DNA of 64,000 bases from an uncultured Chloroflexia bacterium. GTDB lineage: Bacteria > Chloroflexota > Limnocylindria > Limnocylindrales > CSP1-4. The notes below the pieces were generated by a model. It worked only from the letters and a program-made list of their open reading frames with translations, ran no database searches and was not told the DNA's origin. The position numbers and the translations under genes are program-made. The stretch lies in contig CAVXSS010000001.1 in assembly GCA_963764515.1 (NCBI GenBank), positions 911,373-975,372 of the forward strand. The letters run 5' to 3'. This document shows, in pieces, positions 46,635 to 49,453 of the stretch. Each line of letters starts with the position of its first letter. The first letter of the stretch is position 1.

Positions 46635-47558
46635 TCAGCCGCGATCGAGCTCCCGGAGCACGAGTGCGGCCGCACCGATGGACTCGAGGGTGATGGGATC
46701 GAGCACGAGTTGCACGTGCGAGATTCCAGCTCTCGCGAACGCTCGCAGCGCTTCGGCGACGTCATCGGGCGCCCCCTCGAGCGGAGGCACGGCGTCGTTG
46801 GCCCCATCGCCCTGGATCCGGCCCGTGCCACCGTGCAGACGCATGAGGACCGCGACCGTTCGGGCGATGTCGTCCGGGTCGCGGCCGACGTCGCGACAGG
46901 CCTCGTCGACGACGTCCCGGAGCCGGGCCACGCCATCGGGCCGGTTGCCGATGTCGGCGAACCAGGAGTTCCAGGCGTCCACATACGGCGTCGTCAGGCG
47001 CAGCATCCGGGGGCCGTTGGACCCGATGAGCAGCGGCGGCCCGTCCGGTCGCGGCCCGCGCGGCAGCAGTTCGCAGTCCCGCGCCTGATAGAAGCGCCCG
47101 TCGAAGTCGATGGCGCCATCGCGCAGCAGGGTCCGGATGATCGTGAACGCCTCCTCGAACCGATCGACGCGGTGGTCGAAGGGGAATCCGAACGCCCGGA
47201 ACTCCGTCTCGTTCCAGCCCGCTCCCAGGCCGAGGACGAAACGGCCGGAGCTGATCTCGTCGATCGTCGCGGCCTGCTTGGCGAGGAGCGCCGGGTTGTG
47301 GAAGTTGGTACAGGCGACCAGCGGCCCGAACTCCACCCGCGAGGTCACCGCGGCGACGCCGGCCATAAGGGTCCACGCCTCCCACGGGCCGCGGGGCGGG
47401 CGGTCATCCCAGCGGTAGAGCAGGTGTTCGCCGAGCCAGATCGAATCGAAGCCGAGGCCCTCGATGGCGCGGATCATGTCCAGCAGCTCGGGCCAGCGAA
47501 CGTCACGCTCGACCTCGGGGAGCTGGACCCCGACCTTGAGCGGCCGGCCGGTGATCAC
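46635..47558 (-). CDS. LLM-class (luciferase-like) flavin/F420-dependent oxidoreductase
   Basis: GFDSIWLGEH, ISSGRFVLGLGAGW, PPLLIG. Confidence 0.88.
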   Translation of the reverse strand: MITGRPLKVGVQLPEVERDVRWPELLDMIRAIEGLGFDSIWLGEHLLYRWDDRPPRGPWEAWTLMAGVAAVTSRVEFGPLVACTNFHNPALLAKQAATIDEISSGRFVLGLGAGWNETEFRAFGFPFDHRVDRFEEAFTIIRTLLRDGAIDFDGRFYQARDCELLPRGPRPDGPPLLIGSNGPRMLRLTTPYVDAWNSWFADIGNRPDGVARLRDVVDEACRDVGRDPDDIARTVAVLMRLHGGTGRIQGDGANDAVPPLEGAPDDVAEALRAFARAGISHVQLVLDPITLESIGAAALVLRELDRG

Positions 47559-47562
47559 CGGG

Positions 47563-48615
47563 TCAGGCGCGTTCGGCGACCGCGCTGGCGATGGCGCGAA
47601 GGTGCTCGGGCGTGCTCCCGCAACAGCCGCCGACGATCGTCGCGCCGGCGTCGCGCATCGCCAGGACCTGGGCGGCCATCGTCTCGGGATCGGCGCGATA
47701 GACCGCCCGCATGTCGACGAGCTCGGGCATCCCGGCGTTCGACTTGGCGACAAGGACGACGTCGGGCGCGGTCTCGTGCATCCTTGCGATGACCGGGATG
47801 AGCTCATCCGGGCCGTTCCCGCAGTTGCCGCCCACGGCATCGGCGCCCCAGGCGGACAGGGCTGCGACAGCCTCCTCGGGGGAGACGCCCATCATCGTGT
47901 GGCCGCGCGTGTCGAACGTCATCGTGGCCACGAGGGCGATGCCGGGTGCGGCCCGCCTGACGCCTTCGATCGCCGCCCTGGCCTCCGAGAGGTCGGACAT
48001 GGTCTCGATCCAGATGAGGTCCACGCCACCGGCCACGAGGGACGCCGCCTGCTCGCGGAAGACGTCAACGGCTTCGTCGTACGGCAGCGACCCGAGCGGT
48101 TCGACGATCTCGCCCGACGGGCCGATGTCGCCGGCGACGAGGGCGCCCCCACCCGCGGCCTCGACCTCCGCTCGGAGCAGGATCGCGGCCGTCCGGTTGA
48201 GGTCGTCGACGCGATCGGCGAGCCCATGCAGCCCGAGCCGAAGGCGATTCCCGCCGAACGTGTTCGTCATGAGGATCTGCGATCCCGCGTCGAGGTAGCC
48301 GCGGTGGATCCGGCGGATGACCTCGGGCTGCGTGAGGTTCCAGACCTCGGGCGGGTCGCCGAACTGCAGACCTGCCCCGAAGAGCATCGTCCCCATCGCC
48401 CCGTCGGCGACGACCGGGCTCCCGCGACCGAGCAGCTCGCGGAACCGGGCGCTCTCCGCACCGCCATCGAGGGCGAGACGGGTCTCGCGGTCGGGAAACG
48501 CCGCCTGGTCGACGAACGCGGCCTGCCCGGGCGATCGGTGCCCGTTCCCGTTCGAATCGCCTGTGGCGGCGGCCTCCAGCCGTCGCGCCCGGGTGCCCCG
48601 TCGGATGCCGTCCAT
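47563..48615 (-). CDS. Stand-alone homocysteine S-methyltransferase family protein (MetH Hcy-domain/BHMT-like)
   Basis: ADGAMGT, TNTFG, AGDIGPSG, IETM, GGNC and GGCCG zinc ligands. Confidence 0.88.
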   Translation of the reverse strand: MDGIRRGTRARRLEAAATGDSNGNGHRSPGQAAFVDQAAFPDRETRLALDGGAESARFRELLGRGSPVVADGAMGTMLFGAGLQFGDPPEVWNLTQPEVIRRIHRGYLDAGSQILMTNTFGGNRLRLGLHGLADRVDDLNRTAAILLRAEVEAAGGGALVAGDIGPSGEIVEPLGSLPYDEAVDVFREQAASLVAGGVDLIWIETMSDLSEARAAIEGVRRAAPGIALVATMTFDTRGHTMMGVSPEEAVAALSAWGADAVGGNCGNGPDELIPVIARMHETAPDVVLVAKSNAGMPELVDMRAVYRADPETMAAQVLAMRDAGATIVGGCCGSTPEHLRAIASAVAERA

Positions 48616-48671
48616 GGTGTCCCCATGATAGTCGTTGACAGCGACCCGGCCCCTCCCCCACCCTTCGCCCG

Positions 48672-48737
48672 ATGCATGACATCGACGCGCCGATGATCGC
48701 GACCACCGCGCAGCAGCAGCCCTGGAGGGCTCGCTGA
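48672..48737 (+). promoter_or_regulatory. Candidate leader peptide (MHDIDAP-MIATTAQQQPWRAR) with three tandem Gln codons
   Basis: In-frame ATGs at 48672 and 48693, CAG CAG CAG at 48711-48719, TGA at 48735. Lies upstream of a terminator-like hairpin and lysE. Confidence 0.5.
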
Positions 48738-48782
48738 CCTGACGCGCTGCGCCCGCCCGGGTGCCACCGAACAGGTACCCCG

Positions 48783-48819
48783 ACCGCCCTCAGCCAGCGA
48801 CGCTGAGGGCGGTTTCCTT
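48783..48819 (+). terminator. Attenuator-type terminator hairpin upstream of lysE
   Basis: ACCGCCCTCAGC/GCTGAGGGCGGT, a 12 bp perfect stem followed by TTCCTT, just before the lysE SD. Confidence 0.65.
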
Positions 48820-48835
48820 GTAGATGGAGGACGGC

Positions 48836-49453
48836 ATGGACCCCGCGCTCCTGGTGAGGGGCTTCGCTCTCGGCTTCGTGATCGCCGCCGGGGTCGGGCC
48901 GATCTCCCTGCTCGTGATCCGCCGCACGCTTGCGGAGGGGCGGGTCGTCGGGCTGGCGTCCGGGTTCGGTGTCGCGACGGCCGATGCGACGTATGGCGGG
49001 ATCGCCGCGTTCGGGCTGTCGGCGATCACCGAGGTGCTCGTGGGCAGCAGGCGCCTGCTGGGACTGGTCGGCGGCCTCTTCCTGCTCTGGCTCGCCTGGA
49101 ACGCCATGCGGTCGCGCCCGAGCACCGAGCCCCGCGTCGGTACACGGCGCGGAGGGCTCGCCGGCGCCTATCTCTCCATCCTTGGCCTGACGCTGGCCAA
49201 CCCGATGACCATCCTCTCGTTCGCGGCGCTCTTCGCCGGCTCCGGCATGACCGGCTCGAACGCCGCCGAGTCTGCGCTCATCACGGCGGGTGTCTTCGCC
49301 GGCTCGAGCGCGTGGTGGGTGGTCCTGACGAGCGCCATCGCGATCCTTCGGACACGGGTGACGCCGCGCTGGCTGCGGGCGGTCAGCGTCCTCTCCGGCC
49401 TGACGATCGGCGTCCTGGCGGTCGTGTCCATCCTGGCGGCGGTCCAAGGCTGA
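48836..49453 (+). CDS. LysE/ArgO-family amino-acid exporter
   Basis: SD GGAGG, GPISLL, G..TAD..YG, TLANP. Confidence 0.9.
   Translation: MDPALLVRGFALGFVIAAGVGPISLLVIRRTLAEGRVVGLASGFGVATADATYGGIAAFGLSAITEVLVGSRRLLGLVGGLFLLWLAWNAMRSRPSTEPRVGTRRGGLAGAYLSILGLTLANPMTILSFAALFAGSGMTGSNAAESALITAGVFAGSSAWWVVLTSAIAILRTRVTPRWLRAVSVLSGLTIGVLAVVSILAAVQG

Follow-up and report, generated by a model that had tools for sequence, protein, structure and literature searches.

A candidate trp-type attenuator with glutamine control codons upstream of a LysE/RhtB-type exporter gene in soil Chloroflexota

The DNA analysed here (the window) is a 64,000-nucleotide (nt) stretch of the genome of an uncultured Chloroflexia bacterium of the Limnocylindrales (assembly GCA_963764515.1, contig CAVXSS010000001.1). 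In a 220-nt divergent intergenic region 5' of a gene for a LysE/RhtB-family exporter (lysE), it carries a leader that, judged from its sequence, is probably a trp-type ribosome-mediated transcription attenuator with glutamine codons as the sensor and a leaderless short open reading frame (sORF). All the features by which this class can be recognized in a sequence are present, namely a leader reading frame, clustered codons of one amino acid, mutually exclusive pairings and an intrinsic terminator. The sORF runs over its Gln codons into the end of segment 2 of an RNA in which segments 1 and 2 can form a hairpin (P1), segments 3 and 4 the terminator, and segments 2 and 3 an antiterminator capped by a further hairpin (P2).

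A first-pass annotation of the window had proposed ribosome-mediated attenuation at this place, and the positions that it gave for the sORF, the three CAG codons, segments 1 and 2, the GAGGGC:GCCCTC complementarity, the hairpin and the lysE Shine-Dalgarno (SD) sequence were all verified. The proposal itself gains support from the reading frame, the Gln pair, the three pairing potentials and a codon-to-hairpin geometry of the trp type. When the lysE upstream regions of relatives were aligned, as that annotation had suggested, the start, frame, Gln pair and stop proved to be kept in 53–54 distinct leaders, the terminator covaried at four pairs and P1 at two, and the 2:3 potential was present in every leader folded.

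Anatomy and conservation of the leader

A search with the LysE protein led to 80 related loci, and the 30 closest were examined for the upstream element, which was present in 23. The core pattern CAGCARNNGCCCNNNNGGGCNNNNTCGANCTGA retrieved 40 soil metagenome contigs, and a lysE orthologue lies 120–135 nt downstream in all 38 of them that hold enough downstream DNA. Removal of duplicates left 54 distinct leaders from Limnocylindria-type soil Chloroflexota.

The sORF is maintained as a reading frame. In a frame-blind search that accepted any ATG or GTG 27–37 nt after the -35 box, each of the 53 leaders scored has such a codon in frame with the Gln codons, the sole out-of-frame extra start being the second ATG of ATGCATG in the window. 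The distances from the start to the Gln codons fall into six length classes (24/27, 30, 33, 36, 39 and 54 nt), and as they vary within a stretch of almost no sequence conservation, several independent insertions or deletions (indels) must all have preserved the frame. Two leaders (L117:30-130 and L112:3458-3515) owe a longer version of the unconserved N-terminal part to 15-nt tandem repeats (ATARL units), all of which keep the frame. The stop is found 15–33 nt after the first Gln codon throughout, mostly as the TGA of CCTGA and in L023 as TAG. The leader of the window has lost 1 nt, which changed the frame and produced a new TGA at the same spot, while in L092 (2367-2505, minus strand) TAA directly follows QQGP, which shortens the peptide by five codons and leaves the downstream RNA otherwise intact. 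N-terminal of the Gln pair, the peptide varies in both sequence and length.

The Gln pair reads CAGCAG in 47 of the 54 leaders, CAGCAA in 6 and CAG-AAC-CAA in one; in the unbiased subset of 26 leaders, Q-Q is present in 25 and Q-N-Q in one. The change from CAG to CAA, the only variation within the Q-Q pair, is synonymous, and in group A leaders it turns the G45-C63 pair of P1 into an A.C mismatch. In group B (L025, L026, L035, L039, L052 and L055), where P1 is built otherwise, the Gln codons lie mostly in an internal loop and still read CAG CAG (CAG). The third codon counted from the start of the pair varies (Q, R, G, E, P, W or V), and the Pro, Arg and Ala that come after the pair are nearly invariant. 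The conservation of Pro at +3 (CCC) and Arg at +5 (AGG or CGG) is accounted for by P1, since these codons form both strands of its CCC:GGG core. Arg codons (CGG/AGG/CGC) were considered as control codons and rejected, as the one following the Gln pair varies and the others lie in or past segment 2. In the window, the Gln codons begin 14 nt upstream of the GAGGGC of segment 2.

The spacing between the putative promoter and the sORF would leave little untranslated RNA. The -10-like hexamer is CACCCT in 43 of the 54 leaders and NANNNT in the remainder (A2 and T6 kept), and its distance from the -35 hexamer is 17 or 18 nt in all leaders except one (53 of 54). The -10 hexamer precedes the nearest in-frame ATG or GTG by 5–10 nt (mode 7) with no SD sequence in between, there being no space for one, so that the sORF would begin at the 5' end of the transcript or a few nucleotides from it. 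From this promoter-to-start spacing, the sORF is probably leaderless.

Mean pairwise nucleotide identity, computed by segment among 20 genomes, is 52% in the sORF before the Gln codons, 81% from the Gln codons to the stop, 72% in the P2 region, 56% in the linker, 78% in the terminator, 32% in the tail to lysE and 74% in the lysE coding sequence. Two blocks of the leader, Gln-to-stop and terminator, are thus better conserved than the gene they precede. The intergenic RNA of the window also folds better than its shuffles (z = -2.47), and of the two arguments that the element goes beyond chance, conservation is the stronger. That the leader is a real, selected regulatory element is well supported, and we have little doubt of it.

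In the window, segments 1 and 2 form 9 bp with one bulged C (-13.6 kcal/mol); in the alignment of 20 genomes, P1 consists of 8 pairs and the bulge, with 88% of cells paired and the two covarying pairs. Group B has CCCUCG-NN(N)-CGAGGG instead, with a covarying outer helix (GCCAG:CUGGC versus GCCGG:CCGGC). The 6 pairs of P2 are formed in 96.7% of cells of the 20-genome alignment. The terminator of the window (48782-48814) has 13 pairs (-26.5 kcal/mol), among them a perfect core of 11 G-C and A-U pairs at 48784-48794/48802-48812, and 11 pairs are found in the alignment, with 99.5% of cells paired. Its four covarying pairs are altered on both sides, one of them being G-C in 10 genomes and A-U in 10. 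In relatives, the hairpin has 11–13 bp and is followed by 3–6 U. When the terminated-state structure was scored as a whole (P1, P2 and terminator jointly), its covariation score was reached by none of 500 shuffles.

The antiterminator, which is capped by P2, joins segment 2 (alignment columns 53-65) with segment 3 (columns 110-125); GAGGGC of the former is complementary to GCCCTC (48786-48791) in the latter. In this register 92.8% of cells are paired, versus at most 55% with the partner slid by 1–3 columns. Leaders were also folded with everything up to the P1 loop masked and segment 4 omitted, and segment 2 lay on segment 3 in the minimum-energy structure of all 26 (20 from group A and 6 from group B), at -26 to -41 kcal/mol; for the window, the pairs GAGGGC:GCCCUC and UCG:CGA were obtained at -32.7 kcal/mol. 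Once segment 4 is present the terminator wins thermodynamically, so the choice between the two structures must be kinetic, as is established for trp. Coordinates are collected in Table 1.

Table 1. Features of the lysE leader region in the window
Feature	Position	Strand	Remarks
-35 hexamer TTGACA, putative leader/lysE promoter	48635-48640	+	TTGAC(A) in all 54 distinct leaders
-10-like hexamer CACCCT	48659-48664	+	18-nt spacer; presumed promoter function
Leader sORF, 21 codons, MHDIDAPMIATTAQQQPWRAR and stop	48672-48737	+	ATG 7 nt after the -10 hexamer
Putative control codons CAG CAG CAG (Gln x3)	48711-48719	+	Q-Q in 53 of 54 leaders
Segment 1, CAGCAGCCC	48714-48722	+	5' arm of P1; alignment columns 44-51 pair with 56-64
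Segment 2	48725-48736	+	3' arm of P1, GGGCTCGCTG (48727-48736); antiterminator 5' strand (GAGGGC 48725-48730, UCG 48731-48733)
Leader stop TGA	48735-48737	+	within the end of segment 2
Hairpin P2 (GCGCCC-GCCC-GGGUGC)	48749-48764	+	antiterminator tip; columns 79-84 pair with 90-95
Segment 3	48779-48794	+	antiterminator 3' strand (CGA..GCCCUC) and terminator 5' arm
Segment 4 and U tract UUUCCUU	48802-48819	+	terminator 3' arm at 48802-48814
lysE SD sequence GGAGGA	48826-48831	+	3' of the terminator, outside all conserved helices, not sequestered
lysE, LysE/RhtB-type translocator, 205 amino acids	48836-49453	+	PF01810, E = 1e-19; ATG at 48836

The proposed switch and its alternatives

In the attenuator that we propose, transcription would begin at the ATG of the sORF or within a few nucleotides of it, and a ribosome would trail the polymerase. 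With plentiful Gln-tRNA(Gln), this ribosome would reach the TGA (48735-48737) and occlude segment 2, or P1 would re-form after its release; segment 2 being unavailable, the 3:4 terminator would form and transcription would end before lysE. With Gln-tRNA scarce, a ribosome stalled with CAG in the A site would cover the RNA to about 48723-48727 and thereby the whole of segment 1, leaving GAGGGC..UCG exposed. The freed segment 2 (GAGGGC and UCG) would then catch the newly made segment 3, with P2 at the tip, and this 2:3 pairing would pre-empt the terminator and allow lysE to be transcribed. If the sORF were not translated, both P1 and the terminator would form and the gene would be off. The ribosome footprint sizes in this geometry are textbook values.

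Several points weigh against such an attenuator. The U tract of the window is weak (UUUCCUU), and a scan of the window for consensus sigma-70 promoters and simple terminators called neither the promoter nor the hairpin, the -10 box departing too far from the consensus and the U tract having too many interruptions. Since its sequence hardly varies, the 2:3 helix is nearly devoid of covariation; its sole apparent compensation (AGG to CGG together with the loss of T from CCCTCGG) is essentially one clade-level event, to which L081 is an exception. The conserved CAG CAG is partly paired in P1 of group A, so that conservation at the RNA level could contribute to its maintenance, and a sensor that consists of two to three codons for a common amino acid is a thin one. 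Moreover, the metagenome pattern itself demanded CAGCAR, which confines the unbiased sample for the Gln codons to the 26 leaders found via lysE homology or the covariance model. No public RNA run contained the leader sequence; the runs in which it occurs are soil DNA metagenomes. Finally, the polarity is unexpected, as an exporter would be switched on by scarcity of Gln-tRNA.

Two ideas would make sense of this polarity. Low Gln-tRNA(Gln) could report a block in glutamine synthesis or in tRNA-dependent amidation, with the carrier expelling the blocking compound, an idea that we put forward tentatively and consider doubtful. Candidates for the compound could be a soil glutamine/methionine antimetabolite or an amino acid that builds up to excess and inhibits nitrogen assimilation (such as homoserine or threonine), and the logic would resemble that of ribosome-sensed antibiotic resistance, transferred to amino-acid metabolism. 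Alternatively, the LysE-family protein encoded here may take up an amino acid rich in nitrogen, in which case the classical logic of starvation would hold again.

The same translation-dependent switch might answer to a different signal, such as a ribosome-targeting compound, general translation stress, or a small molecule sensed together with the nascent chain (as in erm/mef/bmrB, TnaC and SpeFL). For a gene that encodes an exporter, a toxic compound is a more fitting inducer than starvation, hardly any variation is seen in the Pro, Arg and Ala that follow the Gln pair, and drug-dependent leader stalling on exporters or resistance genes is established, e.g., for mef/mel (PMC4335068). Antitermination would nevertheless need a stop at or before the Gln codons, where the nascent chain is unconserved (52% nucleotide identity, variable length), while a ribosome held up beyond these codons would mask segment 2 and so promote termination; pairing in P1 in any case explains why Pro (CCC) and Arg (A/CGG) are conserved. 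We looked for conserved exit-tunnel residues at the inducing stall site, by which the arrest-peptide class (TnaC, SpeFL) is defined, and they are missing. The fallback offered by the first-pass annotation, a ligand-dependent arrest peptide, is likewise disfavoured, as the peptide before the stall is unconserved and its C-terminus is dispensable (L092 ends right after QQGP) or altered (the window). Altogether, we regard a signal other than glutamine as rather improbable.

It is less probable still, and in our view unlikely, that a translation-independent cis-regulatory RNA, either a riboswitch or a protein-binding leader, picks between terminator and antiterminator while the sORF is incidental. 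Although its sequence is not conserved, the 5' third of the RNA is always an open frame from the predicted 5' end; start position, frame and stop have been retained in spite of one frameshifting indel and six or more length classes; the variation in the Gln codons is only synonymous; and no Rfam family matches even at E <= 10. What speaks for such an RNA is the good conservation of several unpaired stretches, for instance GACCUGAUGCGC and CCGACCAC around P2 and, in group B, the internal loop that holds CAGCAG, together with the ease with which DNA of 70% G+C keeps reading frames open. The element could also lack any conditional role, with hairpins that stabilise or insulate the 5' end or fix a constant low read-through, or the sORF could encode a functional small protein. 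In favour of this, some orthologous lysE loci function without the element. If there were no switch, however, it would be difficult to account for the exact and conserved way in which three mutually exclusive pairings overlap with the positions of the codons, and the peptide varies too much to be a functional micro-protein; we regard these last explanations as very improbable.

Distribution of the element and genomic setting

Seven of the 30 closest loci (L002, L005, L018, L020, L022, L027 and L029) are wanting in the element, and some orthologous lysE genes accordingly do without it. Natural deletion variants (L002, L029 and others) have lost the entire module and not parts of it, which counts in favour of the proposed attenuator. 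The variant in L022 (2830-3000) keeps the TTGACA-CACCCT promoter and the terminator 3' arm with its U run, the sORF, P1, P2 and segment 3 being gone. A covariance model (R1) gave one significant match in the window, the element itself, and also found divergent copies before lysE orthologues of about 50% identity (L035 and L052); R1 acts mostly as a sequence profile, because RNAalifold gave only 10 consensus pairs with one clade of the larger alignment misaligned in the terminator. A further match, in L037, lies inside a transporter coding region and was discarded as spurious. Rfam searches gave no relevant match in the leader region at E <= 10, and nothing relevant upstream of distant lysE homologues in 40 loci at the gathering score. 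A cobalamin riboswitch in L036 lies on the strand opposite to lysE, about 2.4 kb downstream of the gene.

Two further sequences are of note. In L105 (1560-1707), the leader ends abruptly after P2 and enters an apparent tRNA gene on the opposite strand, which may be a rearrangement or a chimeric metagenome contig. L010 (contig DASPHN010000223.1, 3 kb), binned as Candidatus Saccharimonadales, carries a leader identical to that of the soil contig L103 and a Limnocylindria-like lysE, and is probably mis-binned.

The window has a G+C content of about 70%, and by LysE-protein homology its nearest relatives are metagenome-assembled genomes labelled Chloroflexia, Limnocylindria or Limnocylindrales. 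The LysE protein matches PF01810 over residues 16-197 (71 bits against a cut-off of 25.6) and has the full-length LysE domain; its matches to the curated RhtB-family, LysE, RhtC and LeuE models were all sub-threshold. Upstream, on the opposite strand, a stand-alone homocysteine S-methyltransferase domain protein (47563-48615, PF02574) is encoded, followed by a luciferase-like monooxygenase (LLM). Both genes (46635-48615, minus strand) are divergent from lysE in 19 of about 30 closest loci, as found by tblastn of the window neighbours, and this synteny is thus conserved; in several further loci the LLM gene alone adjoins lysE. The first-pass annotation had also pointed to two glutamine synthetases about 8 kb away, a link that found no support, since within the 3-kb flanks examined the element travels with lysE and with no glutamine synthetase gene.

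The ATG of the methyltransferase gene (48615) is just 19 nt from the -35 box of the leader, a distance at which the two back-to-back promoters must overlap. A -10-like TATCAT on the minus strand (48626-48631) lies 9 nt upstream of this ATG and would allow a near-leaderless start there too; alternatively, GGGGA 4 nt before the ATG could act as an SD sequence. In L029 (2960-3003), which is without the leader, the lysE ATG is 24 nt from the start codon of the divergent gene and 8 nt after a CATCAT hexamer. There lysE itself may be leaderless, a hint that leaderless mRNAs may be common in this lineage.

Relation to known systems

The leader resembles trpL, hisL, pheL, leuL, thrL and ilvL in having tandem codons for a single amino acid within segment 1 or immediately before it, and the classical attenuators generally in its 1:2 and 3:4 versus 2:3 hairpins, in a stop at segment 2 and in an intrinsic terminator that precedes the first structural gene. 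As the leader has no more than two to three control codons, its nearest classical counterpart is trpL. It differs from the classical attenuators in its Gln codons, in a target that is an exporter rather than a biosynthetic or charging gene, in a sORF without an SD sequence that is apparently leaderless, in the P2 hairpin that caps the antiterminator, and in its phylum, Chloroflexota. It has no sequence similarity to any Rfam leader family. To our knowledge, the amino acids for which classical attenuation has been described are mainly Trp, His, Phe, Leu, Thr and Ile/Val (with Cys or Pro variants), and this mechanism is almost confined to biosynthetic operons of cultivated Proteobacteria, Firmicutes and Actinobacteria. 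Literature searches brought up no described Gln-codon attenuator and no LysE leader peptide, and, together with the Rfam searches, they agree with the remark of the first-pass annotation that no Gln-sensing attenuator of an amino-acid exporter is well described.

If the proposed attenuator is real, it would add to this picture a leader that reads glutamine, an exporter as the target, the combination of a leaderless sensor frame with an intrinsic terminator, and a class of uncultured soil Chloroflexota, the Limnocylindria. In most bacteria, Gln-tRNA is made by amidation of Glu-tRNA(Gln). If the same holds for this lineage, the ribosome would be the place where this signal integrates nitrogen status, a nitrogen-sensing route so far undescribed. 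With 54 sequences and a clear structure, the element is defined well enough to found a new RNA family and to serve as a compact test case, and it offers a handle on the substrate of this LysE subfamily.

Leaders that govern transporters by way of their own translation are known from other systems. In Salmonella, the proline-codon leader ORFs mgtL and mgtP (of mgtA and mgtCBR) similarly control transcription elongation into a transporter gene (PMC3641672); they differ in being long and responsive to several signals (Mg2+, ATP, Pro), in using Rho or other stem-loops, in having an SD-led ORF, and in their codons and transporter families. In mef(E)/mel, ermK and bmrB-bmrCD, the translation of a leader and a choice between terminator and antiterminator govern an exporter (PMC4335068), much as proposed here. 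These drug-inducible leaders need a conserved stalling peptide and an antibiotic, whereas in the present leader the peptide before the productive stall site is unconserved.

A parallel for the leaderless sensor is offered by the mycobacterial "Cys ribulon", in which leaderless polycysteine sORFs are described as amino-acid sensors that act via ribosome stalling (Canestrari et al., 10.1101/834739). Both systems have clustered codons of a single amino acid and a high-G+C host, and the Chloroflexota leader would, like the mycobacterial ones, have a leaderless sORF as its first cistron. They part ways in the output, which in the mycobacterial sORFs, as described there, is the masking and unmasking of a ribosome-binding site; in the Chloroflexota leader it would be a terminator hairpin with a U run, with the lysE SD sequence left free and an exporter as the target.

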